Source of the DNA: Candidatus Levyibacteriota bacterium | GTDB taxonomy: Bacteria > Patescibacteriota > Microgenomatia > Levybacterales > UBA12049 | NCBI GenBank assembly: GCA_038254115.1 | Contig: JBBSGK010000004.1 | Location: 4,227 to 68,226 of the forward strand | DNA length: 64,000 nt | Reading direction: 5' to 3' | Shown here: in pieces, positions 1 through 42,826 of the stretch | Position numbering within the stretch: the first letter of the stretch is position 1 | How the letters are laid out: every line of letters begins with the position of its first letter | Position numbers and translations under genes: made by a program | The notes under the pieces: generated by a model | What the model saw: only the letters and a program-made list of their open reading frames with translations | Told to the model about the DNA's origin: nothing | The model's database searches: none

Positions 1-1183
1 GATCAAATCCCTTCATGCCATATGTTCCGTTTAGACTGATGTTGTAGGCTATATTCCATGTAAAATCACTAAGTTTGGGATCTATTAAATCAAACGGTAC
101 GATAAAGAACCCTTCGTTAACAGATGGACTATTATATTGAATACGGATTTTTTTATATACATTCCCATTGCCTTCAATAATAACGCGGGACGGATGTCCC
201 TTCCATCCGACCAGCATATGTGATTCAAATGTTTGGTAAGTGGCCGAAACCGGATCAAGTGCATGATCTGCTTTTCCCTGAATAAATAAGGATTGAAATG
301 CAGGATTTTCAATAGTTACCACGGGAGCCGATTGTGCTGAAGCGGTAATGATCTGACCTGAAGCCTTATATGCAATTTCAGTTGCCCGTGAATGCTGCTC
401 TTTCCCAAACCATTGTCCGGGATCGGTAAATTTATCAACAACAAATTCATAGGATTGGGCACCGGTGCCTATCAACTGATAACTCAACGCCAAGTCGTAA
501 TCACTGCGCCAAAATTTGGCATTTAATTGTACAGATAGGGGACCTGAGTAGGTGGTTGAGAGCGTTGTCGGAGTTAGATGTTTATCTGATTGTGATTGCC
601 TGGTAAAATTGCTTGCTTCTAGAACAGTTCCGTTGTTAACTGCATTAAATCCTACTTTTGTAACGTGTTCCATATTGTCATATCGATAGTCCTGTTGAAG
701 GTAGTTATCGGGAGTATCCGATGCAATCACACGTTGACCAGGATCCAAGTCTTCAAATACCCCTTGCTCGCGCCGCAGAAATAATTGCGTTCCTTGATAG
801 GAAGAAGACGGAATTTGAGAACTTATTAAACCATTTATAATGTGTTTAATTGATTCTAGCCTAACGATTGGGGAGGATTTTTCTTCTTCAGCAAACGCCA
901 AAATTGTCCGCGCGCTATCCTCAGTAAAGTGGATAGCAGGAAGGTTATCGGAATTAATTCCGTCCAGGGAAAATGTCAGCAAGTTATACCGGTTATCAAT
1001 TAAATTTTCCATATAATTTCCGGCATTCCAGCTGAGTTGGGTTGCAGTGGAGATTGGGGTTTGTGCTTTTGTCCTGAAATCATTTTGCTTTCTGAGAAAG
1101 AGAATCGTAATTGGTACTGCTAACAAGAGGAATATTAAGAATAACAGGGTAATATATTTTTTTTGACCCAAAAACCGCCGCAT
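1..1183 (-). CDS. hypothetical secreted/membrane-anchored protein, partial (runs off the window start; N-terminus at 1183)
   Basis: Minus-strand frame reads open from the ATG (reverse complement of 1181-1183) to position 1 with no stop. The ORF track omits it because there is no stop inside the window. The N-terminus MRRFLGQKKYITLLFLIFLLLAVPITILFL looks like a signal anchor. It sits downstream of rplL where rpoB is normally found. Confidence 0.6.
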   Translation of the reverse strand, partial: MRRFLGQKKYITLLFLIFLLLAVPITILFLRKQNDFRTKAQTPISTATQLSWNAGNYMENLIDNRYNLLTFSLDGINSDNLPAIHFTEDSARTILAFAEEEKSSPIVRLESIKHIINGLISSQIPSSSYQGTQLFLRREQGVFEDLDPGQRVIASDTPDNYLQQDYRYDNMEHVTKVGFNAVNNGTVLEASNFTRQSQSDKHLTPTTLSTTYSGPLSVQLNAKFWRSDYDLALSYQLIGTGAQSYEFVVDKFTDPGQWFGKEQHSRATEIAYKASGQIITASAQSAPVVTIENPAFQSLFIQGKADHALDPVSATYQTFESHMLVGWKGHPSRVIIEGNGNVYKKIRIQYNSPSVNEGFFIVPFDLIDPKLSDFTWNIAYNISLNGTYGMKGFD

Positions 1184-1230: not shown

Positions 1231-1282
1231 CAAAAATAGTATCTAGCATAAGACTAAAAATAATCGTAATACTAGATACTAT
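1231..1282 (-). terminator. candidate rho-independent terminator after rplL
   Basis: Perfect 11-bp inverted repeat ATAGTATCTAG / CTAGATACTAT (1236-1246 and 1272-1282), followed on the minus strand by a T-run. It lies just 3' of the rplL stop. The loop is unusually large (about 25 nt). Confidence 0.35.
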
Positions 1283-1288
1283 TTATTG

Positions 1289-1681
1289 CTATTTGAGCTC
1301 TACTGTAGCTCCTGCTGTTGTGAGTTTTTCTTTTGCCTCCTCAGCTGTTTTTTTGTTAACACCGTTCATTATTTCTTTTGGAGCTGCGTCAACTAGATCT
1401 TTTGCGTCTTTAAGCCCGAGAGTTGGAACCAACTCACGAAGTGCTTTGATAACAGCAATTTTTTGCGCGCCTGATTGTGCGATCACAACATTGAAAACTG
1501 TTTGTTCCTCAGCCGGAGCGCTGTCTCCTGCCGGAGCGGCACCCGCTGCTGGAGCTGCAACTGCCATCGCTGCTGCTGATACACCGAATTTTTCTTCCAA
1601 AGCTTTTACTAAGTCAGAAAGTTCAAGAACTGACATCTCTTCAATTGATTTCATTAAATCGTCTTTATTTATTTTTGCCAT
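1289..1681 (-). CDS. rplL: 50S ribosomal protein L7/L12
   Basis: 130 aa. N-terminal dimerisation helix, Ala/Pro/Gly hinge ([17 protein letters not shown]) and a conserved C-terminal domain ...[21 protein letters not shown]... Confidence 0.95.
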
Positions 1682-1711
1682 ATATTAACACCTCCCTTCG
1701 TTATAAAATTG

Positions 1712-2260
1712 TTAAGCTTGTTTGGATTTCTCAATTGCCGATAGGGTCATTACAAATTTTTGCAGGTTCCAATTTAGTGCGCGGTGAAGTCCTGAGATTG
1801 GACCTTTCATATTGCCAAGAAGTTGGGCGCGGAGAACATCAAGAGGCGGGAGAGTTGAGATTTTGATTACGTCATCTTCTGCAACGATTTTGCCCTCAAG
1901 AATGCCGAATTTAATTAGAGGAAGCTTGAATTCTTTGATGGATTTGGTTATTGCTTTTAGTGGGCCTACAACGTCATCGTACATAAAAAGCGTTGCTGTT
2001 GGGCGACTAAATCTTTCTTTCTCAGCTTCTGTGTCAATCTTTCCTTTAAGCGCGATAAGAAGAAGTGTATTTTTGGTGTTAATGTATTCCGACTCCATAG
2101 ATTTGAGGGATTTCTTAAGTCCTTCAATCTGTTGATGGGTGAGTCCCTGATAATCAGTGAAGATGATGCCTTTGGCTTTTTCGACTTTTTGAAGGAGTTC
2201 GGCGACGATCTGCTCTTTTTTCTTGCGGTTATTACTTACTTTATTTGTTGCGTCTTGCAT
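1712..2260 (-). CDS. rplJ: 50S ribosomal protein L10
   Basis: 182 aa, immediately upstream of rplL in the same orientation. The L10-like N-terminus is ...IVAELLQKVEKAKGIIFTDYQGLTHQQIEGLKKSL... Confidence 0.93.
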   Translation of the reverse strand: MQDATNKVSNNRKKKEQIVAELLQKVEKAKGIIFTDYQGLTHQQIEGLKKSLKSMESEYINTKNTLLLIALKGKIDTEAEKERFSRPTATLFMYDDVVGPLKAITKSIKEFKLPLIKFGILEGKIVAEDDVIKISTLPPLDVLRAQLLGNMKGPISGLHRALNWNLQKFVMTLSAIEKSKQA

Positions 2261-2426
2261 ATATTCCTCCGTAGGATTTATTCCGAATTTTTCGAAACCT
2301 ACTTCTTAGGACTATTAAATTATAGCAGGGGAGGGGAGGATTGTAAATAGCCATTAAAACTGATAACGAATAAGAACTACTGATAAGAGTTTATCCAAAC
2401 AGGTATAAGTTATTGGTAAGAAGACA

Positions 2427-5318
2427 TTATGGTGCAACTTCTCTTGAGATTGTTTCATCCCGCATCAGAAAAGTTGGGGCATTAAGTATAAAATCAAGTC
2501 TCGGACTGATTGTGAGAGATGGGGTATTTGAGTTAGCGCCGCAAAGACTGCGGTTATTTATTAGCTTTCCATTCCCACCATTACCGGCAGCATTCATGAT
2601 AATTGATCCTTCTACATTTAACATTTTATCAGGAGCCGGGCAATTGTTTTTTCCCTCAAGAACAAAATTCTTATCAGTACTGTAAAATCCTTGTAATTGG
2701 CCTGCGGGTTTGGGCAAAGAGTTGCTTGCGGCGCCTACCGATTTATCGATAACGATGTTCCCGCTTGATGAAAATAGAGCAGTCGAGCCGTTTGGAATTG
2801 TAATGTCGCCTTTAACCGTTAACTTTCCATTGATTAGGAATATATAATTTTGGGATACGGTTGTAGGATTAAAGCTTGTAATAGTTACATCGCTATTGGG
2901 CGGGGCAACATAAATTCCATGGGATAAGTTGCTTGGAAGAGCGCAGTTGGAAATGCCACCGCTGCAAACTGATGCAAGATCAATTGTGGTTAATTGTGCC
3001 CCGGATATCTTGTCGGTCAAACTCCCATAACTTGTATGCAAGCGGCCGGTAGATGAGAAGAATTCAGGATACGATGATCCTCCTACGACCCAATTTTTAC
3101 CGGATGACTGACCCGGGGAAAAATCCGGATTTCCATCTCCTGAAAAAATGACTCCAGGGGTTGATCCGATAGCGCTGTCACTCTCTGAGGCAGATGCGCC
3201 TGAGGGAACATTGTCCACAAATCCGCTATCAATCCGAAGGTCAAGATTATAGCCCTGTATCCAAGCAGTGGAGTTATTGAGGGCAAAATTGAGATTTATT
3301 ATATTTCCTGATGCATCACAACTGCCTCCGGTTGTTGGATTGGGAATAGGATTAACGCATCCCGAGCCGGCAGTTACAGAGAATGCTGCTGGTCCGTAAG
3401 GATATACATGGTAATTAGGCGGAACAGTATTGTACGTTATTGTGTAGGTCCCGGAAGGAACATTTGTAAAGGAATAACTGCCATCCGCGTTATTGGCTAC
3501 TGTTATTCCAGCGCTTGGAGAGATACTTATATTTGGTGGTGTTGCAGTATAGTTTAATTCGCCACGGTTACTCTGATTGTCTCCATTTGTATCAATAAAA
3601 ACCTTTCCGGAGATGCTGAAGAAAGCCGTATTTACAGTAGCTGTATTTACAGTAAATGACAGATTGTCGGTACTAGCATTGCAATTTGCGTCACCCGAAT
3701 AGTCTGCTGTAATTGTATGGGTTCCGGTAGTTAAGGATGAGGTAGAGATGTTTGCTGTTTGCGCGGCAAGAGCTACGGGATTACCCATTGATATGCCCCC
3801 GTCATTGAATTGAATTGTGCCTGTCGGAACACAGGCACCGCTTCCTGCAACTGAAGCTGAAAAAGTAACTGATGTTCCTGAATTAGATGGGCTTACCGGG
3901 GAAGAGGTAAGAGTGGTAGTGGTTGCTGCTAATGAACCTGTTGTAGGTGTTGCGGTTGGAGGAGTAGTTGGAACCGTGGTTGGGGTAGGTGTTGCGGTTG
4001 GAGGAGTAGTTGGAACCGTGGTTGGGGTAGGTGTTGGTGGTTGTATTTGTGGAACTGAGCAGCCTGCTCCTCCGCGTCCTCCGGCACCGCCTGTGTTACC
4101 TGAGGGCGGTTGGCCGGCTTGTCCTGCATGTAATCCGTTACAGCCAGAACCTCCAGCTCCTCCGACACGGCCAGGTCCAACTTTATCATTGTAAATATCG
4201 CCATAACCCCCGGCTCCATAACCGGCAATTGGTCCGGCGGGCGAGGCAGTCCCAGTGGCACCGGTGCCTCCTTGACCTCCATCTCCTCCCTTGCCTCCGT
4301 CGCCACCGGCTGTAGTTCCAAGTCCATTTCCGCCATTGCCACCTAACCCTCCTATACCTCCCTTACCATTGAAGCTCTCAGCAATACTAAACGCTCCGTA
4401 TCCTGCAATTGGACCTGTAAATTTTGCGTCTCCATGGGCATTGTTTCCTCCTCTTCCTCCGTTGCCTCCATTTCCACCATTTCCTCCAGATTGGATCCCG
4501 TTTGAGTCACCTCCATTGCCTCCATCGCCTCCAAAGCCCCCCTCTCCATTATATAAAATTCCAAAACTACCTGCCCCATATCCGACTCCTCCAGGGGATG
4601 AGGCAGTTCCGTGGGCTCCCGTGCCTCCTTGACCTCCATCTCCTCCCTTGCCGCCATTCCGTCCTAATTTTCCATTATTTCCATTCCCTCCCCATCCTCC
4701 GGCACCGTTATATACTTGAGCAAAACTTGAAGCACCATAACCGACAGGTGTTACGGATTTAGCATCGCCCGAAGCATTATCCCCACCACGTCCACCAACT
4801 CCTCCATCTCCACCTGCGCTAATTGCGGTTGCATTTCCTCCCTTGCCTCCATTTCCACCCTTACCGTTGTATACCTGAGTCGAGAAAGCTGAACTGCTAC
4901 TTTTGGCATTACCGGAAGCATAATTACCTCCAGTTCCTCCGCTTCCTCCTGGCCCGGCAACACCATTGCTTGTTATATTATCGCCTCCATTTCCGCCTTT
5001 TCCTCCGAGGCCGTTATATACAGTTGTGAGGGTTGTGGCATCACTTTTAGCATTGGCGACTCCGCCTCCTCCTCCGCCCCCACCGGCGCCGAGTGCTTGG
5101 TTGAGAGTTAATAATCCACTTCCACCATTTCCTCCATTTGCTGCCCCTCCTGCTCCCCCTCCTAAGCCTTGAGAATTATTGCAACCTTTTTGTCCTGGTG
5201 CGCCGGAAGCGCCACCTGTACCACAGCCAACTTGGGCAGATAAGGTGGGTACGAGTATAAGAAAAGTGAAGATAAACAGCGTGAGAATAGAGTTATTGAG
5301 GAATGGTTTTCTTGCCAT
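2427..5318 (-). CDS. glycine-rich repeat cell-surface protein (signal peptide, Gly-rich repeats, Pro/Thr linker, Ig-like/Cna-B-like domains, C-terminal domain)
   Basis: 963 aa. The signal peptide is MARKPFLNNSILTLFIFTFLILVPTLSAQ. It is followed by about 390 aa of roughly 40-aa repeats of the form YNGxGGxGGxGG...DAKS. Then comes a PTPTTVPTTPPTAT x2 linker, then beta-sandwich-like segments such as GKVFIDTNGDNQ...SGTYTITY. The gene lies between rplA and rplJ. Confidence 0.85.
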   Translation of the reverse strand: MARKPFLNNSILTLFIFTFLILVPTLSAQVGCGTGGASGAPGQKGCNNSQGLGGGAGGAANGGNGGSGLLTLNQALGAGGGGGGGGVANAKSDATTLTTVYNGLGGKGGNGGDNITSNGVAGPGGSGGTGGNYASGNAKSSSSAFSTQVYNGKGGNGGKGGNATAISAGGDGGVGGRGGDNASGDAKSVTPVGYGASSFAQVYNGAGGWGGNGNNGKLGRNGGKGGDGGQGGTGAHGTASSPGGVGYGAGSFGILYNGEGGFGGDGGNGGDSNGIQSGGNGGNGGNGGRGGNNAHGDAKFTGPIAGYGAFSIAESFNGKGGIGGLGGNGGNGLGTTAGGDGGKGGDGGQGGTGATGTASPAGPIAGYGAGGYGDIYNDKVGPGRVGGAGGSGCNGLHAGQAGQPPSGNTGGAGGRGGAGCSVPQIQPPTPTPTTVPTTPPTATPTPTTVPTTPPTATPTTGSLAATTTTLTSSPVSPSNSGTSVTFSASVAGSGACVPTGTIQFNDGGISMGNPVALAAQTANISTSSLTTGTHTITADYSGDANCNASTDNLSFTVNTATVNTAFFSISGKVFIDTNGDNQSNRGELNYTATPPNISISPSAGITVANNADGSYSFTNVPSGTYTITYNTVPPNYHVYPYGPAAFSVTAGSGCVNPIPNPTTGGSCDASGNIINLNFALNNSTAWIQGYNLDLRIDSGFVDNVPSGASASESDSAIGSTPGVIFSGDGNPDFSPGQSSGKNWVVGGSSYPEFFSSTGRLHTSYGSLTDKISGAQLTTIDLASVCSGGISNCALPSNLSHGIYVAPPNSDVTITSFNPTTVSQNYIFLINGKLTVKGDITIPNGSTALFSSSGNIVIDKSVGAASNSLPKPAGQLQGFYSTDKNFVLEGKNNCPAPDKMLNVEGSIIMNAAGNGGNGKLINNRSLCGANSNTPSLTISPRLDFILNAPTFLMRDETISREVAP
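3947..4040. repeat. 42-bp tandem repeat (2.3 copies) inside the Gly-rich protein gene, encoding the PT-rich linker
   Basis: GTGTTGCGGTTGGAGGAGTAGTTGGAACCGTGGTTGGGGTAG occurs at 3947-3988 and again at 3989-4030, followed by a partial third copy. Confidence 0.8.
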
Positions 5319-5497
5319 AATTTAACTATACAAAGGGGGGAACTAACTTGTCAACGAAGAGCGTAAAGGATGTTAGGGAAATAAAATTTATAATTATTTA
5401 ATAACTTCTCTTCTAAATCCTAGTGTTGGAAGGATAATGAAAAAATACAGTATAGGATTATAAAAGATGATAAAGATTGAGAATTAGAAACGAAGAA

Positions 5498-5992
5498 TTA
5501 CTTAAGGTCGGCACAAACAATATCTGTTTTAAGATCCTGCGCAGATTTATGCACCCTTACAGCTAGTGGAAATTGTTTTTTAAAATCAGCCAGCGTACCC
5601 GTTATATAGTTTGCCGTTTTTCCATTTACAACAGGGGAGAGAGAATATTTTGCATTTTCCGGTTTTTCACAGCTTCCTTCATAAACATATGCCGGATGCG
5701 AAGCCTTATCAGTCGTATTATTTAGATCAACACCTATAAATACTTTTCCATTAACCTCATTGAATGTTACAATTCCGGAGCTTCCTGAATTGTTTTTTTC
5801 CGAAAGATTAGCCTCCATACTGGCTACAATAGGTCCCTGTTTTAAATCAGGAGTAAGATTTGCGGTAGGGGGAGAGGGGTTGGATTGAACGGGCCGGTTA
5901 TTTGTATTTTTCTTGGGTAGGAAAATTATAGATGCTATCATCAGGACAACGAAAATAGAACCAAAAATAAGTATTTTTTTGTTCATGGTCAT
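5498..5992 (-). CDS. hypothetical membrane-anchored/secreted protein
   Basis: 164 aa. N-terminal TM helix IFGSIFVVLMIASIIFL, Pro-rich spacer, and a C-terminal domain with two Cys. It sits between rplA and the Gly-rich protein gene inside the ribosomal cluster. Confidence 0.6.
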   Translation of the reverse strand: MTMNKKILIFGSIFVVLMIASIIFLPKKNTNNRPVQSNPSPPTANLTPDLKQGPIVASMEANLSEKNNSGSSGIVTFNEVNGKVFIGVDLNNTTDKASHPAYVYEGSCEKPENAKYSLSPVVNGKTANYITGTLADFKKQFPLAVRVHKSAQDLKTDIVCADLK

Positions 5993-6041
5993 ATTAAATT
6001 TACCAATTGTTGCCGGAAATTGTCAAGCTGACCAATGTAGA

Positions 6042-6929
6042 TTATGCAGAAAAATTGAGTTTGATTCCGGGGGACATTGTGGATTTGAGCGTGATGTTTT
6101 TGATATTTTTTGCCTGCACTGCTTGGATAACTGCCTCGACATTGTCAACCAATTTTTTCTCTTCAAATGAAATCTTGCCGATTGATAAGTGCATGATTGG
6201 GGCTTTTGCTTCTGTCTTGAAATTGATTTGTCCGAGCTCAAATTTCTTTGCTGCCTCTTTTGGTTTGGGATGGATGGTGCCGTTTTTGGGATTTGGCATA
6301 AGGCCCCGTGGCCCGAGAACTCTTGCAACTTTTGCAAGATGGCTCATGGTATCAGGCGTTGCGATAAGGATATCAAAATCCACTTGCCCCCCGGTAATTG
6401 CTTTTACAAGTTCTTCAACGTGTTTGGGATCCGCAGCGTGATCCGCAATCTCGATTTTTGCCTTTTTTCCTGATCCATGGGGGAGTGTGAGATTTCCTGA
6501 AATTCCCCGCTCCTGCGTATTGATGTGTAGCTCAACTGTTTCATCAAGTTTGGTTCTTTTTGTAGAATTTAAAATCTTCAAAGCATCTGTCACAGAATAC
6601 TTTTTATTTTTATCTACCTGCTTGGCCATTGCCAGATAACTTTCTGAGTGAGGCCTTGCTTTTTTGGAGGCTTTGTATTTTGATGTCTTGACAGTTTTGG
6701 CCGCTTTTTTTTCAGTCTTTGTTTCCTCAGCTTTTAATTCGGACTGTTCTTCTTTCTCTTCATTTACTGATTCTTTTATTGCTGAGTTTTCAACCTGCGT
6801 TGCTTTTTCGGCTTCGCCTTGTTTTTTGGCAGCTTCTATCCTTTTGGCTTCAGCTTTTTGCTTAGCTTTTTTCTTCTGATCTTTTTCGTCTTCTTCAATT
6901 CCAATTGTTTTAACTCTTATTTTACCCAC
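6042..6929 (-). CDS. rplA: 50S ribosomal protein L1 with an N-terminal Lys/Glu-rich extension of about 85 aa
   Basis: The L1 core begins around MAKQVDKNKKYSVTDALKILN... I place the start at the GTG at 6927-6929, which sits 4 nt after a GGGAGG Shine-Dalgarno sequence. The ORF-track start at 6965 is a TTG inside a heptamer repeat and I discount it. The ATG at MAKQVDK remains a possible alternative start. Confidence 0.85.
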   Translation of the reverse strand: MGKIRVKTIGIEEDEKDQKKKAKQKAEAKRIEAAKKQGEAEKATQVENSAIKESVNEEKEEQSELKAEETKTEKKAAKTVKTSKYKASKKARPHSESYLAMAKQVDKNKKYSVTDALKILNSTKRTKLDETVELHINTQERGISGNLTLPHGSGKKAKIEIADHAADPKHVEELVKAITGGQVDFDILIATPDTMSHLAKVARVLGPRGLMPNPKNGTIHPKPKEAAKKFELGQINFKTEAKAPIMHLSIGKISFEEKKLVDNVEAVIQAVQAKNIKNITLKSTMSPGIKLNFSA

Positions 6930-6952
6930 GTTTCCTCCCTTCGGTCGGTCAA

Positions 6953-6983
6953 GTGCAAAGTGCAAAGTGCAAAGTGCAAAGTG
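6953..6983. repeat. heptanucleotide tandem repeat (GTGCAAA) x4 plus a partial copy, in the rplK-rplA intergenic region
   Basis: Directly visible as gtgcaaagtgcaaagtgcaaagtgcaaagtg. Confidence 0.9.
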
Positions 6984-7039
6984 AAGGAATTTTTGTTTTT
7001 AATTATTTTTATTAAATTTAAACTTTTCATTTTTAACTT

Positions 7040-7462
7040 TTAACTTACTTCAACCCCCATTGATCTTGCAGTTCCGGCTACAATTCTTGCTGCCATTTCT
7101 ACGTCATCTGTATTCAGGTCTTCCATTTTGTCCTTTGCGATTTGGCGGGCCTGATCCATGGTGAGTTTGCCTATTTTTTCCCGTCCAGGTTTTTGTGATC
7201 CTTTTTCCTGGCCCATTGCTTTTTTGATCAGCTCGGCAACAGGGGATTTTTTGGTGATGAAAGAGAAAGTCCTGTCTTCATAAACAGTAATCACAACAGG
7301 GATGACATTGCCTTTCTGATCAGCAGTCTTATCATTGTAGGCTTTGACAAACTCCATGATGTTAAGACCATGTGGCCCGAGAGCAGTTCCGACAGGCGGT
7401 GCTGGTGTTGCTCCTCCTGCAGGTAATGCGATTTTAATTAATGTTTTTATTTTCTTAGCCAT
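7040..7462 (-). CDS. rplK: 50S ribosomal protein L11
   Basis: 140 aa with the L11 signature [43 protein letters not shown]... Confidence 0.93.
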
Positions 7463-7474
7463 AATAGTAAGTAC

Positions 7475-7693
7475 TTAGAAATTTTTTCCTTCACTTTTCC
7501 AGATTTTTCTTGTCCCTCTTCTTGCTCCTATCCTACTAAAATAGAATCCTTCTTTTCGAGCCAAGACTAATTCACCTTGAGTAGCTGTTACTCTGAATTC
7601 TGAACGTGTAACAGGCCATTGGCCTCCTTCCAGCTTTTTTACTCTGACACGAATTGGCAAATCTTCCTCTGATTTTTCAGCGCGTAACTTCAT
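7475..7693 (-). CDS. small basic ORF between nusG and rplK (uncertain; could be a leader region)
   Basis: 72-aa Arg/Lys-rich ORF in the 305-bp nusG-rplK gap, where an L11/L1 regulatory leader is usually found. Confidence 0.2.
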   Translation of the reverse strand: MKLRAEKSEEDLPIRVRVKKLEGGQWPVTRSEFRVTATQGELVLARKEGFYFSRIGARRGTRKIWKSEGKNF

Positions 7694-7767
7694 ATTTGCA
7701 AATACATAATAAAAGAATTAACAGGTTTTAGCACAATGAGTAAGTCTAATACCAATTCTTGGCCATC

Positions 7768-8406
7768 TCATATCTTCTTCACCTGTAAAAAGTCCAGCTC
7801 AACGGGGGTTTCCCTCCCGAAGATTGAGACCAGAACTTTTACTTTTCCGCGGGTTTCGTCTATATTGTCAATTGTTCCCAGGAACTCTGCAAAAGGTCCG
7901 TCTGTGATCTTTACTGCCTCACCGACTGTAAAGGCAACTTTGTAAAGAGGTTCATCCAGGTTCATAAACTTCTGAATTGCCTCAACTTCTTTCTCCGAAA
8001 TTGGAGTCGGTTTGTTCCCGGCTCCGATAAAGCTTGTTACTCCCTGAGTGCTTCTTACCATGAACCATGATTCATCATCCAGAATCATCCTGACAAGTAC
8101 ATATCCCGGGAAGATTTTTTCCTGAATTGTTTCTTTTTTGCCCTGGCTGACCTTGATTGTGTTGCGGGTCGGGACAATGATATCAAAGATACGGTCATCA
8201 AATTTCATCGCCTCGGCTCTTTGCTTAAGAGATCTGGCGACTTTGTTTTCATGCCCAGCATAGGTATGAAGAATGTACCATTTAGCGTTATCAGGAACAG
8301 TTACAACTTTTTTCTCGTCGCCTGCAATGCCCGCTGTATCGACAGGATCTGCTGCTTTTTTTTCTTCTTTCTTTTCTTTTGGTTCGGTTGTCTGCGCTGT
8401 ATCCAT
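7768..8406 (-). CDS. nusG: transcription termination/antitermination factor NusG with a charged N-terminal extension
   Basis: NGN domain (KWYILHTYAGHENKV...) and C-terminal KOW (GEAVKITDGPFAEFLGTIDNID...KVKVLVSIFGRETPVELDFLQV). It is preceded by an approximately 35-aa Lys/Glu-rich tail. Confidence 0.9.
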   Translation of the reverse strand: MDTAQTTEPKEKKEEKKAADPVDTAGIAGDEKKVVTVPDNAKWYILHTYAGHENKVARSLKQRAEAMKFDDRIFDIIVPTRNTIKVSQGKKETIQEKIFPGYVLVRMILDDESWFMVRSTQGVTSFIGAGNKPTPISEKEVEAIQKFMNLDEPLYKVAFTVGEAVKITDGPFAEFLGTIDNIDETRGKVKVLVSIFGRETPVELDFLQVKKI

Positions 8407-8408
8407 AA

Positions 8409-8603
8409 TTATCTTAATATCAATCCCATCAATTTTGTAAACGCCAAATCAAGAGCACCTATATATAGTCCGACAAGTACGCTGATTGTTATGACAACCA
8501 AAGTAAGTCTGATGACTTCATCTCTTGTCGGCCATATGACTTGTCTTAATTCGACATAAGTTTCTTGTAAAAATTTAACAGGAGTAGTCATTATATCAGA
8601 CAT
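8409..8603 (-). CDS. secE: preprotein translocase subunit SecE
   Basis: C-terminal ...KFLQETYVELRQVIWPTRDEVIRLTLVVITISVLVGLYIGALDLAFTKLMGLIL matches the SecE TM helix. I trimmed the start to the internal ATG (MSDIMTTPVKF...). The longer ORF to 8699 overlaps a plus-strand promoter. Confidence 0.8.
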   Translation of the reverse strand: MSDIMTTPVKFLQETYVELRQVIWPTRDEVIRLTLVVITISVLVGLYIGALDLAFTKLMGLILR

Positions 8604-8668
8604 CCGCCTAAAACAGCGGATATGCATTGCAATTGTACCAAAATTGCGGGATGGTGTAAAGAAGCATG

Positions 8669-8696
8669 TTGACAAATAAAAAGTTTGTACTACAAT
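8669..8696 (+). promoter_or_regulatory. sigma-70-like promoter (TTGACA, 16-nt spacer, TACAAT) driving small plus-strand ORFs
   Basis: TTGACA at 8669-8674, 16-nt spacer, TACAAT at 8691-8696. It diverges from secE. Confidence 0.4.
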
Positions 8697-8701
8697 CACA
8701 A

Positions 8702-8902
8702 ATGGAGGAAAGCACGCGTATGTTTGAACGAAGATCCAGAGATGAATCTACAGTATTGCCCGAAGTTGTTGAACCACTTAGAAGATTTTTAATTAGGGAA
8801 GGTCGGCAGTATGTGGATCCTGCAAAATTAAAGAAACCCAACCGCCCAAATCCTAGAACCAGACGCAGTAGGCGGAGAAGAGCTGCCGATAAAGGTAATT
8901 AA
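8702..8902 (+). CDS. small Arg-rich basic protein, hypothetical
   Basis: The ATG lies a few nt after the predicted transcription start (MEESTRMFERRSRDESTVLPEVVEPLRRFLIREGRQYVDPAKLKKPNRPNPRTRRSRRRRAADKGN). An alternative start is the ATG at 8720, 11 nt after a GGAGG. Confidence 0.35.
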   Translation: MEESTRMFERRSRDESTVLPEVVEPLRRFLIREGRQYVDPAKLKKPNRPNPRTRRSRRRRAADKGN

Positions 8903-8977
8903 AACTTTATTAAATCAATCAGTTATTTCAAATATTGAATAAAAAGAGTTATATTTTACTGAAAATATATTAAATAT

Positions 8978-9199
8978 ATGGAGCGTATATTAAGAGAAGG
9001 TCATGTTAAGGGAGATGTTATAAGAGTCCGTAGCGCTGGTAATAGAGTTAAGGGAACGGTTGATATGGGTGAAACAGGGCACATAGAAGTTTTATCATCA
9101 GATCAGGCCAAATGGCAATATGATGAGGACGTGGCAAAAAGACGTTCACGGCAGGGAAACGCTCGGCAACAAGGTAGGGGAAGAAGGGGTGGGTCCTAA
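8978..9199 (+). CDS. small Arg-rich basic protein, hypothetical
   Basis: 73-aa ORF with an Arg/Gly-rich C-terminus (RRSRQGNARQQGRGRRGGS). No recognisable family. Confidence 0.35.
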   Translation: MERILREGHVKGDVIRVRSAGNRVKGTVDMGETGHIEVLSSDQAKWQYDEDVAKRRSRQGNARQQGRGRRGGS

Positions 9200-9253
9200 T
9201 TCTTATTTCTCTATCTTTGCAAAAGGAGCAAGAAACATTATAATATCCACATA

Positions 9254-10135
9254 ATGCGTAAAAAGATCCGTAAAGCTGTTATTCCCGCTGCCGGGTTTGG
9301 TACCCGGTTTTTGCCTCAAACAAAGGCCATGCCCAAGGAAATGCTCCCGATTGTCGATAAGCCTGTGATCCAATACGTTGCCGAGGAAGCTGTAGCATCA
9401 GGGATAAAGGATATTATTATAGTGACAGGATCACTGAAGAGGGCGATCGAAGATCACTTTGATGCACCCAATTCAGATCTTATCAAAAATCTGGAAGTAG
9501 CGGGTAAGGACAAACTTCTCGCCCAGACAAGAGCTATCTCTGAGATGGCCAATTTTATATACATCCGCCAAAAAGGCATGTATGGCAACGGGACACCTGT
9601 TCTATCTGCGGAACCAGCGATTGAAGATGAATTCTTCGCAGTACTCTGGGGAGATGAGTTTATTTATAGTAATCCGCCAAGGCTTTCCCAGATGCTTGCA
9701 GTGCACGAGCAGTATGGCGGCGCTGTTATATCAGGTGTGCGGATTGAGAATAAAGAAGACCTAAGGCGCTATGGAATTGCGGAGGTGGAAGAAGTCAAGG
9801 GAAATGTTTTTAAGATAAAGAAGATAATCGAGAAGCCTCATCCCGATAAAGCTCCATCCAATCTTGCAACCCACGGCGCATACATTCTACCGCCTGAAAT
9901 CTTCGGAATCCTGAGAGATCAAAAGCCGGGGACAGGTGGAGAAATTTATTTACCGGAAGCTATAGATCAGCTCATCAAAACAGGCTATCCCGTATACGCA
10001 TGTGAGATAGAAAACGGCAAATATTTTGATACCGGGAATAAGCTTGAGTACATGAAGACAGTAGTCGAGTTTGCACTAAATCATGAAGATATAAGTGAAG
10101 ATTTCCGCACATTCCTCAAAGAGCTGAAGATTTAG
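9254..10135 (+). CDS. galU: UTP-glucose-1-phosphate uridylyltransferase
   Basis: N-terminal KAVIPAAGFGTRFLPQTKAMPKEMLPIVDKPVIQYVAEEAVASGI is the classic GalU nucleotide-binding signature. Confidence 0.9.
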   Translation: MRKKIRKAVIPAAGFGTRFLPQTKAMPKEMLPIVDKPVIQYVAEEAVASGIKDIIIVTGSLKRAIEDHFDAPNSDLIKNLEVAGKDKLLAQTRAISEMANFIYIRQKGMYGNGTPVLSAEPAIEDEFFAVLWGDEFIYSNPPRLSQMLAVHEQYGGAVISGVRIENKEDLRRYGIAEVEEVKGNVFKIKKIIEKPHPDKAPSNLATHGAYILPPEIFGILRDQKPGTGGEIYLPEAIDQLIKTGYPVYACEIENGKYFDTGNKLEYMKTVVEFALNHEDISEDFRTFLKELKI

Positions 10136-40067: not shown

Positions 40068-40139
40068 GCAGGGACGCCCAGACTCGAACTGGGAAAAGCA
40101 GTTTTGGAGACTGCTGTGATAACCATTTCACCACGTCCC
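40068..40139 (-). tRNA. tRNA-Trp (anticodon CCA)
   Basis: Reverse complement AGGGACGTGGTGAAATGGTTATCACAGCAGTCTCCAAAACTGCTTTTCCCAGTTCGAGTCTGGGCGTCCCTG. The anticodon loop CTCCAAA and T-arm AGTTCGAGTCT match E. coli tRNA-Trp. The 7-bp acceptor stem pairs. Confidence 0.9.
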
Positions 40140-40291
40140 TAATTGGCCACAAGTGCATTATGGCATGTAGATTATACTAAAAAGCTTACAGGTTAGCTAC
40201 ATCTTCACCTCAGCTTTGACAAACTCTTCGTTGACAATAACAAATCTTGAGATACAATGTAGGTTGATATAGAAAGGAAAACAACAGAAGT

Positions 40292-41431
40292 ATGGCTGAA
40301 AGGATAAGAAAGGGAATGGAAAGGGTAAGGGGTTCGGAAGAATCACCCAAAAAAGAAAAGCCAACAGGAATTGGAACAGGTATTTACCGGCCAAGAAAAT
40401 TACTAACTACTTTTGAGCTTGGAAGACGAAGGATAATTCTTCCACATAGAGGCGAAGAACAACGAGATGATCGAAGGATGCCTAGGATACTTACAGCTGC
40501 TGATATAGAACGAAAAATTGGCGTTGAACAAAGACGCATAGCTGGTACAACTGAAACAGTCGCGTATATGGGTTACAAAGCTGGGGAGGAGGCGCTTGGG
40601 GAAGACCATAAGGTAGATCTGATCATAACATCTACGACTCACCCCACTTCTGAACATGTTTCGAAAGAGATCGCTAAATCGCTAAAGTTGCCGGAAGATA
40701 CCCCGGCAATTGATGTCCATGCGGCATGCTCGGGATCAGCGCTGGCTTTTGCTTATTTACATGAACATAGAGAGGAAATGCTAGGAAAGAGGATACTTGT
40801 TGTAGCATCTGAAAAAATTACTGATACTCTTGTTGATCTGAGGAATGGGGGAGCGGAACTTGATCCTTCGCTCGGACAAACCATTTTTAGTGACGGCGCT
40901 GCAGCAATCGCTTTTACTTTTGGAAAGGACATTAAAACCCATTTTGCGGGCAATGAATCTCTTCCTGATGCAAGAGGAAGAACAGATTTGATAAAAATGT
41001 CTGTTGGAGACAGCTCTTTTGTGGAGCCTTGCATTACTTATCCTGTTGCTCCTTCACCCAGTACTCCTGAATATCCAAAAGGTTTCTTCACACAGGAAGG
41101 CGGGGCGGTTTATGAAGGAGTTCAATCCGCTATACCCGACATAATACGAGATGCAGTAAAGGCATCCACGTGTAGGCCTGAAGAAATAGATCTTGTAGTC
41201 GCGCATTCCGGAAGTAAAAAAATGGTAGAGGCATTAAAGAGAAGATTAGGTGAGTATAAATTGCATGCATTATACAAAGAAGGTAACGTGTCTTCAGTAT
41301 CTATGCTTTATGCTTTGATAGATGCAATAGACGAAGGATTAATTGGGAAGGGAAGTAAAGTGGTCTTATCAGGATTTGGGGCCGGAAGTCCTGATCTTTT
41401 TTCCTCAACTGTTGTAGCAGAGCTTGGGTAA
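40292..41431 (+). CDS. 3-oxoacyl-ACP synthase III (FabH / KAS III)-like condensing enzyme
   Basis: Active-site Cys context VHAACSGSALAF, His/Asn region VVAHSGSKKM, C-terminal GFGAGS. It has a basic N-terminal extension, and the start could be one of the internal Met codons. Confidence 0.75.
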   Translation: MAERIRKGMERVRGSEESPKKEKPTGIGTGIYRPRKLLTTFELGRRRIILPHRGEEQRDDRRMPRILTAADIERKIGVEQRRIAGTTETVAYMGYKAGEEALGEDHKVDLIITSTTHPTSEHVSKEIAKSLKLPEDTPAIDVHAACSGSALAFAYLHEHREEMLGKRILVVASEKITDTLVDLRNGGAELDPSLGQTIFSDGAAAIAFTFGKDIKTHFAGNESLPDARGRTDLIKMSVGDSSFVEPCITYPVAPSPSTPEYPKGFFTQEGGAVYEGVQSAIPDIIRDAVKASTCRPEEIDLVVAHSGSKKMVEALKRRLGEYKLHALYKEGNVSSVSMLYALIDAIDEGLIGKGSKVVLSGFGAGSPDLFSSTVVAELG

Positions 41432-41661
41432 TTTACTAAGATATAAATATGAATCCTCTTTCTATTTTATTGTGGTGTTTGAGTAGACTTGTATGCCTGA
41501 AGCCAGTTATTTGAAATTTCTTTTTGCGCATCAGGAAGACTTATAAATTATAGGAAATTCTATGCTACCAACATATATCTATTGACAATTTATTGTTTAT
41601 AGTTTATACTACGAGACATGAGTCATTTTTCAGAACTAGGGCGTAAAGACATTTAGCAGCA

Positions 41662-42150
41662 ATGGGCGGCAACCCAGAGCCTGTTGCGCCTGTCGATATG
41701 TTAAGCATGCCAAAAAAGGATTTTAGAGCTAACCTACTTGTAACCAGAAGTTTGGAAAGATTTGTAATAAAGGCTTATGAAAGAAGCAATAAATTGTCTG
41801 TTGAGGATGAAAATAGTTATGACTGGGATTTATTGGATAGTAGAATTAGGGAAGTTGATGAAGCAGTAATGAAAGCAGTTGAAGAAAATAAAGTGGGAGA
41901 TGTTATTGTACACTTAGGATACTCTAATTTAAAACAGGATCAAGAAATGTTTGGATTATTAAGTCTTTACTCTGGACAATTTTTAGCAGATGGTCCTAAG
42001 GAAGAGGATGGTTACCGCGTATTTAAAAAATCAACTATTCACGGCTTGTATTTAGAGAGTTTTTCACCCGTAGAGGGCTCTCCTAGAATCAGGCTATTAG
42101 GCGCGAATAAATTACCCCCAAAAGTAAAAGCCGAATTTGGCATAAAATAA
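41662..42150 (+). CDS. hypothetical protein
   Basis: 162-aa ORF with no family recognised. Confidence 0.45.
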   Translation: MGGNPEPVAPVDMLSMPKKDFRANLLVTRSLERFVIKAYERSNKLSVEDENSYDWDLLDSRIREVDEAVMKAVEENKVGDVIVHLGYSNLKQDQEMFGLLSLYSGQFLADGPKEEDGYRVFKKSTIHGLYLESFSPVEGSPRIRLLGANKLPPKVKAEFGIK

Positions 42151-42481
42151 TATTTGTACCAAGCACTCATATCTACAACATTTTTTGAAGAAACTGTATC
42201 TACTTTTACTTGTATACTCCCTGGAATAAATCGGGTTTATGGCGCTCAGGAGGACATTATTTCAACTTTTCTGATTCTTTGTGATCTGTTACCTTTTTAC
42301 AAAATTTGCACCATTTTTTCAAAACAAGCTTTTCAGGTGTTTCCATCTTATTTTTTTGGCTGATGTAATTGCGGCTTTTACAAATAGAACAAACCAAGCC
42401 TATTTTTATTCTGTGTTCTCCCTTTTTGGCCATAATCTAGCTATTATACAATATTTGGAATCAAACTGCCACTACAATTGA

Positions 42482-42553
42482 GCCGAAGATGGGAATCGGA
42501 CCCATGATCTAGTCATTACCAATGACTTGCTCTACCACTGAGCCACTTCGGCA
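42482..42553 (-). tRNA. tRNA-Thr (anticodon GGT)
   Basis: Reverse complement GCCGAAGTGGCTCAGTGGTAGAGCAAGTCATTGGTAATGACTAGATCATGGGTCCGATTCCCATCTTCGGCT. Cloverleaf with anticodon loop TTGGTAA. Confidence 0.85.
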
Positions 42554-42600
42554 TTCGTTTCATCATGTGTGAACAAGCTTATTCTGATGAGTCAGTTTGT

Positions 42601-42684
42601 GCCAGCTGAGGGACTCGAACCCCCGTAGGCCTTACGGCCGCCTCGTCTACAGCGAGGTGCAATTGCCGCTATGCGAAGCTGGCA
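42601..42684 (-). tRNA. tRNA-Tyr (anticodon GTA), long variable arm
   Basis: Reverse complement GCCAGCTTCGCATAGCGGCAATTGCACCTCGCTGTAGACGAGGCGGCCGTAAGGCCTACGGGGGTTCGAGTCCCTCAGCTGGCA. Anticodon loop CTGTAGA. 84 nt. Confidence 0.85.
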
Positions 42685-42686
42685 GA

Positions 42687-42750
42687 TTAGTCGTTAGCTG
42701 TTAGTCATTAGTCGTTGGCTAAAGACAAAAGACCAAAGACCAAAAGCTAA
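42687..42750. repeat. heptamer tandem repeats in the tRNA spacer: (TAGTCRT)x4 followed by (AAAGACC)x3
   Basis: ttagtcgttagctgttagtcattagtcgttggctaaagacaaaagaccaaagaccaaaagc lies between tRNA-Tyr and tRNA-Thr(TGT). Confidence 0.6.
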
Positions 42751-42754
42751 TTTG

Positions 42755-42826
42755 AGCCGAGACGGGGATTCGGACCCCGGACCTGCTGTTTACAAAACAG
42801 CTGCTCTACCGCTGAGCTATCTCGGC
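42755..42826 (-). tRNA. tRNA-Thr (anticodon TGT)
   Basis: Reverse complement GCCGAGATAGCTCAGCGGTAGAGCAGCTGTTTTGTAAACAGCAGGTCCGGGGTCCGAATCCCCGTCTCGGCT. Anticodon loop TTTGTAA. Confidence 0.85.

Follow-up and report, generated by a model that had tools for sequence, protein, structure and literature searches.

The window, by which we mean the complete 64-kb stretch of DNA analysed here, has its best matches among records under the names Candidatus Levybacteria, Levyibacteriota, Microgenomates or Patescibacteria, and judged by sequence its source is a very small, uncultured bacterium whose genome belongs to the CPR/Patescibacteria, Levybacteria type (Microgenomates). On the minus strand, ORF calls and Pfam confirmed the gene order secE-nusG-rplK-rplA-p164-big963-rplJ-rplL, in which 3.7 kb of predicted surface-protein genes (p164 and big963) occupy the interval between rplA and rplJ. 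The features are as follows:

8409..8603, minus strand: secE (Pfam SecE, 2.2e-18); the ORF is open to 8699, and the ATG at 8603 is the start chosen by the sequence-only reading
7768..8406, minus strand: nusG (Pfam NusG, 3.2e-30, plus KOW)
7040..7462, minus strand: rplK, encoding L11 (Pfam Ribosomal_L11_N and Ribosomal_L11)
6042..6929, minus strand: rplA, encoding L1, 295 aa (Pfam Ribosomal_L1 at aa 134-299 of a 307-aa ORF)
5997..6026, minus strand: promoter-like site of p164, TTGACA-18-TAAATT with TG upstream
5498..5992, minus strand: p164, 164 aa, with an N-terminal membrane anchor
5325..5354, minus strand: promoter-like site of big963, TTGACA-18-TATAGT, 11/12 positions
2427..5318, minus strand: big963, 963 aa, with signal peptide and Gly-rich region; predicted secreted multidomain surface protein
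big963, aa ~30-440: Gly-rich repeat region, some 5-6 units of ~53 aa
big963, after the Gly-rich repeats: Pro/Thr linker holding an exact 42-bp tandem duplication (3943-4026)
big963, aa 471-558 (nt 3645-3908): Big_3_5 Ig-like domain (Pfam, 66.7 bits; gathering threshold 35.5)
big963, aa ~566-650: SdrD-B/CnaB-like domain
big963, aa ~678-954: putative C-terminal beta-solenoid with a DUF3494/ice-binding-protein-like fold
2319..2347, minus strand: promoter-like site of rplJ, TTTACA-17-TGcTATAAT (extended -10), 11/12 positions
2264..2312, minus strand: predicted L10(L12)4-binding 5' domain of an L10 leader, short form (custom covariance model R2)
1712..2260, minus strand: rplJ, encoding L10 (Pfam Ribosomal_L10, 1.2e-19)
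1289..1681, minus strand: rplL, encoding L7/L12 (Pfam Ribosomal_L12_N and Ribosomal_L12)
1234..1284, minus strand: intrinsic-terminator-like hairpin 3' of rplL, with 16-nt arms followed by UUUUUG (inverted repeat and fold)

The likely start of rplA is the GTG at 6929, which is preceded by the Shine-Dalgarno (SD) sequence GGGAGG. The ORF tool starts at the TTG at 6965 (ORF 6042-6965), and tblastn alignments of the resulting 307-aa ORF with relatives begin at residue 12-13; the product carries a K/E-rich N-terminal extension of ~90 aa. The sequence-only reading had described rplA and rplJ as split by two exported-protein genes lying on the same strand and lacking flanking duplications, which is borne out by ORF calls, Pfam and a repeat search. 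No direct or inverted repeats were found at the borders of the p164-big963 segment, Pfam detected neither integrase nor transposase among the two cargo genes, and no tRNA lies within 30 kb. A mobile element or integrated island, for which boundary repeats, an integrase, a transposase or a tRNA target would speak, was rejected on these grounds. Searching the literature, we found no description of such an arrangement in CPR.

The big963 product is predicted to be a cell-surface protein. It has no Pfam match to the ice-binding or SdrD_B families, and adhesins with the DUF3494/ice-binding fold or SdrD-B/CnaB domains have no counterpart to its N-terminal Gly-rich repeats; an adhesin role is putative. 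The similarity of this Gly-rich N-terminus to neighbours of p164 homologues in two further genomes (L029 and L031) is significant only without composition correction, and the relationship was judged by a common N-terminal Cys-containing motif and by gene order. A further big963 homologue (P0017) sits between mutL and mutS, away from ribosomal genes; the 140-aa protein upstream of it was considered as a p164 counterpart and rejected, being unrelated to p164. As for p164 itself, the protein might be a small extracytoplasmic beta-sandwich protein of the CHRD/Cu,Zn-SOD-like type, a putative assignment that draws on modelling. Its six homologues (45-100% identity) share invariant C108, C160 and H148, the AF2 model has a pLDDT of 72, and Foldseek matches to SODs are weak (best E 7e-3, TM about 0.4). 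There is no Pfam match, the CHRD threshold not being reached; even the distant homologue in L033 scores 23.2 bits against CHRD, under the cutoff of 24.1. Compared with the CHRD/Cu,Zn-superoxide-dismutase-like domain, p164 thus falls short of the Pfam threshold and does not show the conserved metal-binding histidines, and it carries YVY at the position where distant relatives, L033 among them, have HIH. When metagenomes were scanned for the p164 family, just four remote homologues emerged (27-35% identity), and ribosomal genes adjoin none of them.

We considered whether the MAG contig might fuse unrelated pieces, for example via the Gly-rich or Pro/Thr repeats. Two Logan contigs (run SRR24807095) align to the window with 100% identity, one at 1249-3972, spanning the C-terminal half of big963, rplJ and rplL, and one at 4623-6983, spanning rplA, p164 and the big963 N-terminus. 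The junctions that had been feared misassembled (2300-2430 and 5320-6040) are therefore both reproduced by an independent assembly, and the gene order is real. What speaks for an artefact is the stretch 3972-4623 within big963, which is repetitive and the only part that the Logan contigs do not bridge. Their ends adjoin repeats, namely the 42-bp duplication and the 66-nt family D5, whose copies at 4233-4298 and 4590-4655 are 83% identical overall and include a long identical stretch. However, the big963 ORF runs uninterrupted through these repeats, the rplA-p164 and big963-rplJ adjacencies recur in relatives from other samples, and the full gene order is present in L042 on a 1.14-Mb contig. 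Were there a chimera within big963, rplA and rplJ would still both have a non-ribosomal neighbour, and we regard misassembly as an explanation that is hardly credible.

The same relatives bear on the age of the arrangement. In L042 the order reads secE-nusG-rplK-rplA-p164-...-big963 orthologue-rplJ-rplL, and in L030 rplA (75% identity) is followed by a p164 homologue, 1.5 kb of other sequence and, beyond that, the gene of a Gly-rich protein that shares its promoter block with big963; in both genomes the p164 homologue lies directly downstream of rplA. Orthologues of big963 are found just upstream of rplJ in L036, L038/L039, L040 and L042, those of L036, L038/L039 and L040 being 43-53% identical over aa 560-963. 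Five genomes retain the big963-rplJ adjacency, four of them with 108-231 bp between the two genes, and the N-terminal halves and everything upstream are entirely different between genomes. L040 carries a toxin-antitoxin-like gene pair between the big963 orthologue and rplJ. Colinearity is not universal even in this subclade, as L036, L038 and L040 have no rplA within 9-10 kb of rplJ. Homologues of the 963-aa protein thus do occur at the same place, at the level of the subclade (L036, L038/L039, L040, L042), and the suggestion of an insertion peculiar to this genome is not supported, given orthologues at the same places in L030, L036, L038/L039, L040 and L042. On sequence grounds, we consider p164 and big963 to be an old, inherited feature of the subclade rather than a fresh insertion.

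The opposing view would have a two-gene cassette enter a contiguous rplKAJL operon recently and be expressed by read-through from a ribosomal-protein promoter. The cargo does lie on the strand of the ribosomal genes, and the rplA-rplJ interval lacks a terminator; a p164 homologue paired with a downstream Gly-rich protein is also met with in different surroundings (L029, L031), suggesting that the pair can move or duplicate, and none of the 16 deep relatives carries p164 or big963 in the gap. Nevertheless, this scenario is very unlikely: relatives sampled elsewhere (L030, L036, L038, L040, L042) carry these genes at equivalent positions, and their L10 proteins are just 71-86% identical where orthologues are present, making a common population unlikely; flanking repeats, integrase, transposase and tRNA are missing; each cargo gene has a promoter-like site conserved in L030; and the interval is already filled in 14 of the 16 deeper relatives.

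This last point extends to the wider lineage. Among 16 Levybacteria-type genomes with both genes, rplA and rplJ are adjacent in only two (gaps of 138 and 195 bp); 13 have them colinear with 1.4-8.5 kb of mostly unrelated cargo in between, and in one the arrangement is inverted. Differing genes thus fill the interval in 14 of the 16. Among their products are secreted proteins (GH10, GH16 and beta-helix), a GT4 glycosyltransferase, a NUDIX-like protein and an IS200-like transposase, together with many proteins of unknown function. In a comparison that also took in the genes after rplA in L003, 34 gap ORFs had no homologue in another gap, and cargo was common only to L004/L005 and L010/L024; tblastn and blastp detected no homologues of big963 or p164 in the gaps of the 16 deep relatives. 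These genomes are very divergent (L10 45-64% identical), and the differing cargo could reflect long divergence rather than unusually high turnover. The interval downstream of rplL is variable as well, and the slot between rplA and rplJ may therefore be no different from the other operon boundaries of these genomes. Signature motifs of rpoB and rpoC are absent from about 3-10 kb downstream of rplL in all 16 loci, and from the window.

Promoter assignments were made throughout as consensus matches. Three of four minus-strand promoter-like sites (at least 10/12 positions; 9.5 kb) fall in the three intergenic regions that precede the cargo genes and rplJ, which total 394 bp. The number of promoter-like sites in the region is not enriched (22 versus 19.0 +/- 3.8 in shuffled sequence), and hence only position and conservation in L030 argue for promoter function. 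The -10 element of p164 ends 4 nt and that of big963 6 nt before the respective ATG, with no SD in either case; in L030, TTGACA-17-TAAAAT precedes the ATG of the p164 homologue by 6 nt, and the big963 promoter block (cttcgTTGACAag...TATAGT + 6 nt + ATG) is identical in L030. The rplJ element recurs in L004, L008, L038 and L042. The stretch from rplA to rplJ shows no intrinsic terminator, including after p164 and big963, unlike downstream of rplL, where a strong hairpin is followed by a U-run. Read-through from rplA into the downstream genes is therefore possible. The expectation that the cargo is likely co-transcribed with the ribosomal genes holds in so far as the genes share one strand and lack a terminator, whereas the promoter-like sites of the cargo genes make such co-transcription unnecessary to explain their expression.

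A search for an L10 leader between big963 and rplJ (2261-2426) was rewarded at 2264-2312. The Rfam model RF00557 gave no match in the window at E up to 5 (12 kb) or up to 10 (301 nt), its gathering score of 44 bits being unreached, and the element was recovered only after a conserved element had been found in relatives and its 5' domain modelled. The resulting covariance model, R2, built from 16 relatives, scores the window element at 28.2 bits (E 1.6e-5), the sole match under E 1 in 64 kb. Upstream of rplJ, the 5' domain is present in all 19 rplJ-bearing relatives, with a promoter-like -10 just upstream of it in those inspected; the leaders of deeper relatives score 34-51 bits against RF00557. 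Across the relatives, the stem shows covariation in four of five pairs, with 100% of cells paired. The family has conserved L10-binding strands, AAGAcAG ... CCGAGG, on either side of a covarying stem with a hairpin above it and unpaired adenosines, and the window element follows this pattern. In the window, the motifs AAGA-AG, GUAGG...CCUAC and GGAGGA are accompanied by an A-rich internal loop (AUAAAU) and a hairpin on top, and the element ends 3 nt before the rplJ ATG (2260) on the same strand. The proposal that the cargo has taken the place of the L10 leader is not supported, given that leader domain and promoter-like site still lie immediately upstream of rplJ. With rplJ retaining both elements, the split falls at the boundary of two transcription units.

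The small novelty lies in the form of this leader. A bulged cytosine next to the kink-turn is present in >90% of L10 leader examples, and the expression platform of the RNA varies from phylum to phylum (PMC3616713). The window shares with L036, L038 and L042 a short leader with covarying stems in which the bulged C is missing, AAGAAG or AAGAAA being one base shorter than AAGACAG by a deletion. In deep relatives, leader domain and AUG are 33-276 nt apart, with a hairpin and T-run in between; the 3 nt in the window hold no terminator. The 3' strand GGAGGA (about 2265-2270) doubles as the SD of rplJ, at 3-5 nt from the AUG in the subclade. Going by sequence comparison, the subclade has lost the terminator and the bulged C, and the 3' strand serves as the rplJ SD site.

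We assign a probability of roughly 0.7 to the following reading: the boundary between the operons is a variable slot, with surface genes fixed at its edges in the subclade and expressed from their own promoters, and with an SD-occluding leader before rplJ. The cluster of the lineage would be arranged as separate units, secE-nusG-rplK-rplA and then rplJ-rplL, with rpoBC elsewhere, and the boundary between rplA and rplJ would gain and exchange accessory genes across the lineage. The subclade would have fixed p164 by rplA and the fast-evolving big963 by rplJ, and the window would represent the minimal state with those two genes only. Apparent sigma-70-type promoters would drive each cargo gene, at so short a distance from the ATG that the transcripts are probably leaderless or nearly so, and some read-through would probably add to this, as no terminator follows rplA, p164 or big963. 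rplJ-rplL would keep its own promoter and its L10(L12)4-binding leader. Since the subclade leader appears to have dropped the terminator of deeper relatives, its conserved 3' strand becoming the SD, L10(L12)4 would autoregulate by blocking ribosome binding rather than by transcription attenuation.

It is conceivable, if rather doubtful, that the surface-protein gene and rplJ-rplL of the subclade instead form one selected transcription unit. Here, the leader would have shed its terminator so that transcripts from the big963 promoter run into rplJL, a proposal we likewise hold to be unlikely, and the synthesis of surface and stalk proteins would be coupled, with L10 control shifted to translation, which again we suggest only tentatively. 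Persistence of the big963-rplJ adjacency in five genomes, despite wholly different upstream regions and N-terminal halves, fits this proposal, as do the phylogenetic coincidence of terminator loss with the adjacency and the missing terminator after big963. Against it stand the well-conserved promoter-like TTTACA-17-TGcTATAAT, which in the window, L038 and L042 separates big963 from the leader, and the toxin-antitoxin-like pair that intervenes in L040; the adjacency may also be merely inherited. That a rapidly diversifying surface-protein gene became the fixed upstream partner of rplJ-rplL in this subclade while the leader swapped a terminator platform for SD occlusion is an outside chance. If true, it would provide a natural case of an r-protein autoregulatory RNA changing its mechanism within a single class, and the switch may stem from the need to tolerate read-through from a new upstream gene.

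Under the reading that we prefer, of a variable slot between two units, one of the most strongly conserved gene strings of bacteria proves breakable at an internal operon boundary, where in this CPR lineage of very small genomes accessory genes, many of them for secreted or surface proteins, have repeatedly settled. The L10 RNA provides a clean comparative series, from deep relatives with full leader and terminator to a subclade with a minimal form whose binding strand is the ribosome-binding site, and offers a way to examine switches of expression platform in r-protein riboregulators. Neither the breakage nor the leader series overturns current understanding.

Set against the L10_leader family RF00557, the window element is alike in its position directly 5' of rplJ, its conserved AAGA...stem...GAGGA strands, its covarying stem and its hairpin; it differs, with its subclade, in having neither bulged C nor terminator and in a 3' strand that is also the SD. 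In E. coli, rplKA (the L11 operon, PL11) and rplJL-rpoBC (the beta operon, PL10) are adjacent units, each with a promoter of its own and its own autoregulator, L1 and L10(L12)4 respectively (summarised in PMC3616713). The window is split exactly at this boundary between the L11/L1 and L10/L12 units, and its rplJ likewise has its own promoter-like site and predicted L10-binding leader, whereas the boundary holds surface-protein genes over 3.7 kb (in relatives, other genes over 1.4-8.5 kb) and rpoBC does not follow rplL in the window or in relatives. It is a general concept for bacterial chromosomes that hotspots where genes are gained and lost lie between conserved core genes. While the flanks here are ribosomal-protein operons and an integrase, tRNA or repeat signature is lacking, the locus resembles such hotspots in that two conserved colinear blocks flank an interval that differs in nearly every genome compared.

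On the minus strand of the window, between positions 1289 and 8603, ORF and Pfam searches give the order SecE, NusG, L11, L1, a 164-aa protein (p164), a 963-aa protein (big963), L10 and L7/L12. This confirms the sequence-only reading, which had placed two extra genes between rplA and rplJ.

7040-7462, minus strand: L11
6042-6965, minus strand: L1 (rplA) ORF
5498-5992, minus strand: p164, 164 aa with an N-terminal hydrophobic anchor
2427-5318, minus strand: big963, 963 aa with a signal peptide, a long Gly-rich region and a Big_3_5 Ig-like domain
1712-2260, minus strand: L10 (rplJ)
1289-1681, minus strand: L7/L12

The sole correction concerns rplA, whose most probable start is the GTG at 6929, preceded by GGGAGG, rather than the TTG at 6965. 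The absence of flanking duplications also held, as no repeats were found around p164 and big963; the closest tRNA lies >30 kb away. L1 itself comprises 295 aa, compared to a usual length of ~230 aa, and carries a Lys/Glu-rich N-terminal extension of ~90 aa ahead of the Pfam L1 domain (6650-6929, minus), which appears to be lineage-wide, given that tblastn alignments to 12 relatives start at residue 12-13. Between rplK and rplA, directly upstream of the rplA Shine-Dalgarno (SD) sequence and GTG, ~4-5 tandem copies of the heptamer CACTTTG (repeat family D19; 6951-6990, minus) could belong to an L1-responsive or translational-coupling element. At 305 bp (7463-7767), the spacer between nusG and rplK is unusually long and contains a 72-aa ORF (7475-7693) without a Pfam match; the spacers of relatives span 10-220 bp, and some include a short called ORF (36 aa in locus L003, 88 aa in locus L042).

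The window proteins sit on a 70.7-kb NCBI contig. Two Logan contigs (run SRR24807095) are 100% identical to positions 1249-3972 and 4623-6983, so a different assembler arrives at both the rplA/p164/big963 and the big963/rplJ junction. Positions 3972-4623, inside big963, fall outside both contigs, whose ends adjoin repeats: an exact 42-bp tandem duplication (3943-4026) and the 66-nt family D5 (4233-4298 and 4590-4655; 83% identical overall, with a long identical stretch). Because relatives from other samples have the same adjacencies, misassembly, which the sequence-only reading had raised for the two junctions, is not a credible explanation, and an artefactual locus is very unlikely.

A scan of one genome per species recovered 22 loci encoding an L10 relative (44-64% identity over full-length matches), from records titled Levybacteria, Levyibacteriota, Microgenomates or Patescibacteria and, for a few ENA ones, Gammaproteobacteria. 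The ENA MAG records L004, L005, L008, L009 and L014 are titled 'uncultured Gammaproteobacteria bacterium'; these labels are probably wrong, since their secE-nusG-rplKA/rplJL proteins are 55-88% identical to those of the Levybacteria-type window. Both rplA and rplJ are present in 16 of the 22 loci, where they are adjacent in two (138 bp in L012, 195 bp in L016), colinear but 1.4-8.5 kb apart in 13, and inverted in one. In the latter, L024 (11064-13662), the sole relative whose rplKA block is inverted relative to rplJL, an IS200-like Y1 transposase (Pfam Y1_Tnp, 2.5e-11) adjoins rplA. The rplA|rplJ boundary is thus usually occupied in this lineage, and its occupants differ in nearly every deep relative: a comparison that also took in the L003 genes following rplA gave no homologue in another gap for 34 of the gap ORFs, and cargo was in common only for L004/L005 and L010/L024. 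The cargo includes secreted GH10, GH16 and beta-helix proteins, a cohesin-like protein, a GT4 glycosyltransferase and a NUDIX-like protein, alongside many proteins of unassigned function; none resembling p164 or big963 was found in the 16 loci. Secreted proteins encoded at 1-1183 (minus) of the window, at 5727-7730 of L002 and in the gaps of L004 and L005 have a common N-terminal signature, a hydrophobic segment followed by Q-rich-[D/E]xR[S/T][K/R]A (for example ...LQQQDNRSKA...; in the window ...LRKQNDFRTKAQ...), possibly an export or processing signal particular to this lineage.

Downstream of rplL, a region that is also variable, though with recurrent anchor genes, rpoB/rpoC signature motifs were absent (about 3-10 kb) in every locus checked. 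Together with the gene order of the deep relatives, this shows that the classical string is broken lineage-wide into secE-nusG-rplKA, rplJL and rpoBC. The genes for tRNA-Thr, tRNA-Tyr, tRNA-Thr and tRNA-Trp, located upstream of tuf/rpmG/secE in many bacteria, lie at 40068-42826 (minus) of the window, 31-34 kb from secE, and none of six scanned ORFs adjoining them matches the EF-Tu (tuf) Pfam families, which constitutes a further break.

Searches with L10 also brought up closer relatives, at 71-86% identity. In L036, L038/L039, L040 and L042, rplJ is immediately preceded by a same-strand orthologue of the big963 C-terminal half (43-53% identity over aa 560-963). The 1.14-Mb contig L042 has the order secE-nusG-rplK-rplA-p164-4.9 kb of other genes-big963 orthologue-rplJ-rplL; its p164 homologue (frameshifted) and big963 orthologue are both split across frames (3242-3699, 7971-9868) and could be pseudogenes or long-read assembly indel errors. 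In L030 (L1 75% identical), rplA is followed by a p164 homologue, 1.5 kb and a Gly-rich protein, whose promoter block (cttcgTTGACAag ... TATAGT, 6 nt, ATG) matches that of big963, while L029 and L031 encode a p164 homologue and then a Gly-rich signal-peptide protein in another context. The sequence-only reading had treated the two genes as inserted at a junction that is uninterrupted in almost all bacteria, a view to be abandoned if homologues of the 963-aa protein occupied the same place throughout the lineage. They do so at the subclade level and not in the gaps of the 16 deep relatives; nevertheless, with the slot mostly occupied there and the genes inherited in the subclade, the premise of a unique insertion fails. 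Judged by these positions, p164 and big963 were inherited, one at each edge of the slot, and are not a recent insertion.

Four minus-strand promoter-like sites score at least 10/12 in 9.5 kb, and the short intergenic gaps ahead of p164, big963 and rplJ hold three of them. Overall, promoter-like matches do not outnumber those in shuffled sequence, and the case for promoter function comes from where the sites lie and from their conservation in L030. The -10 elements of p164 and big963 end 4-6 nt from the ATG, and neither gene has an SD, which suggests leaderless or near-leaderless mRNAs; the SDs of rplJ and rplL are strong. After rplL there is a strong hairpin with a U-run, and no comparable terminator was found after rplA, p164 or big963, which makes read-through from upstream units plausible. 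That a recent insertion is expressed solely by such read-through is unlikely, given the inherited positions and the candidate promoters.

The site directly upstream of rplJ (TTTACA-17-TGcTATAAT, 2319-2347) matches 11/12 positions. In all 19 rplJ-bearing relatives (fetched from GTDB genomes), two conserved elements precede rplJ: CC[A/U]AAGACAG-stem-CCGAGGAG, and a hairpin with a T-run. The Rfam model RF00557 (L10_leader) scores 34-51 bits on these regions (gathering score, 44), and the relatives' element is thus an L10(L12)4 autoregulatory leader with a terminator platform, as known from Firmicutes and others (PMC3616713). A covariance model of the 5' domain from 16 relatives (five stem pairs, 100% of cells paired, four of five covarying) gave a single match below E 1 in the window, at 2264-2312 (minus; 28.2 bits, E 1.6e-5), and the L10 leader that the sequence-only reading had proposed to search for is hence present in its 5' domain. 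Compared to the deep relatives, the bulged C is missing (AAGA-AG) and the terminator is entirely absent; the 3' strand reads GGAGGA, 3-5 nt from the AUG, and so forms the SD of rplJ. L036, L038 and L042, the closest relatives, have this short form too, and both stems carry compensatory changes there.

The big963 protein consists of a signal peptide, about 5-6 Gly-rich repeats of roughly 53 aa (159-nt periodicity in the DNA), a Pro/Thr linker, the Big_3_5 domain (66.7 bits, Pfam) and a C-terminal half conserved in about 20 Patescibacteria proteins. The 42-bp duplication at the independent contig's end lies in the linker and is a recent or variable repeat expansion. When big963 (2427-5318) is compared with its orthologues (L036 7499-9892, L038 7515-9866, L040 4980-7739), the C-terminal Ig/SdrD-like/beta-solenoid half is common to all, whereas the N-terminal low-complexity halves are wholly dissimilar (Gly-rich, YQ-rich (YQYEYQ), PGQY repeats or SAYGNY repeats (SAYGNYSNY)), suggesting rapid diversification of the exposed part. 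Homologues of p164 from five other samples are 45-52% identical, with Cys108, Cys160 and His148 invariant. Its structure model (pLDDT 72) weakly resembles Cu,Zn-SOD beta-sandwiches (E 7e-3, TM about 0.4), and a distant homologue with PAHIHKGEC scores just under the CHRD threshold (23.2 vs 24.1 bits); p164 reads YVY in place of HIH. We read p164 as a putative membrane-anchored CHRD/SOD-like domain from which most of the putative metal ligands have disappeared.

We favour, with a probability of roughly 0.7, an explanation in which the rplA|rplJ operon boundary is a slot varying across the lineage, two surface-protein genes with their own promoters would have been anciently fixed in it, and rplJL would stay autonomous under a remodelled L10 leader without a terminator. 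A functional fusion of big963 with rplJL, compatible with this explanation, is a lesser prospect: big963 orthologues recur next to rplJ, and rplJ has a candidate promoter of its own.

The window leader works like the RF00557 RNA, yet it differs in the bulged C and the terminator and gives no match to the RF00557 model, falling short of the gathering score; it is a variant platform rather than a standard member, and differences in expression platform between phyla had been anticipated (PMC3616713). Relative to E. coli, the arrangement behaves as the L11 and L10 operons would if moved away from each other, and the split is a new variation on a known type of organisation.
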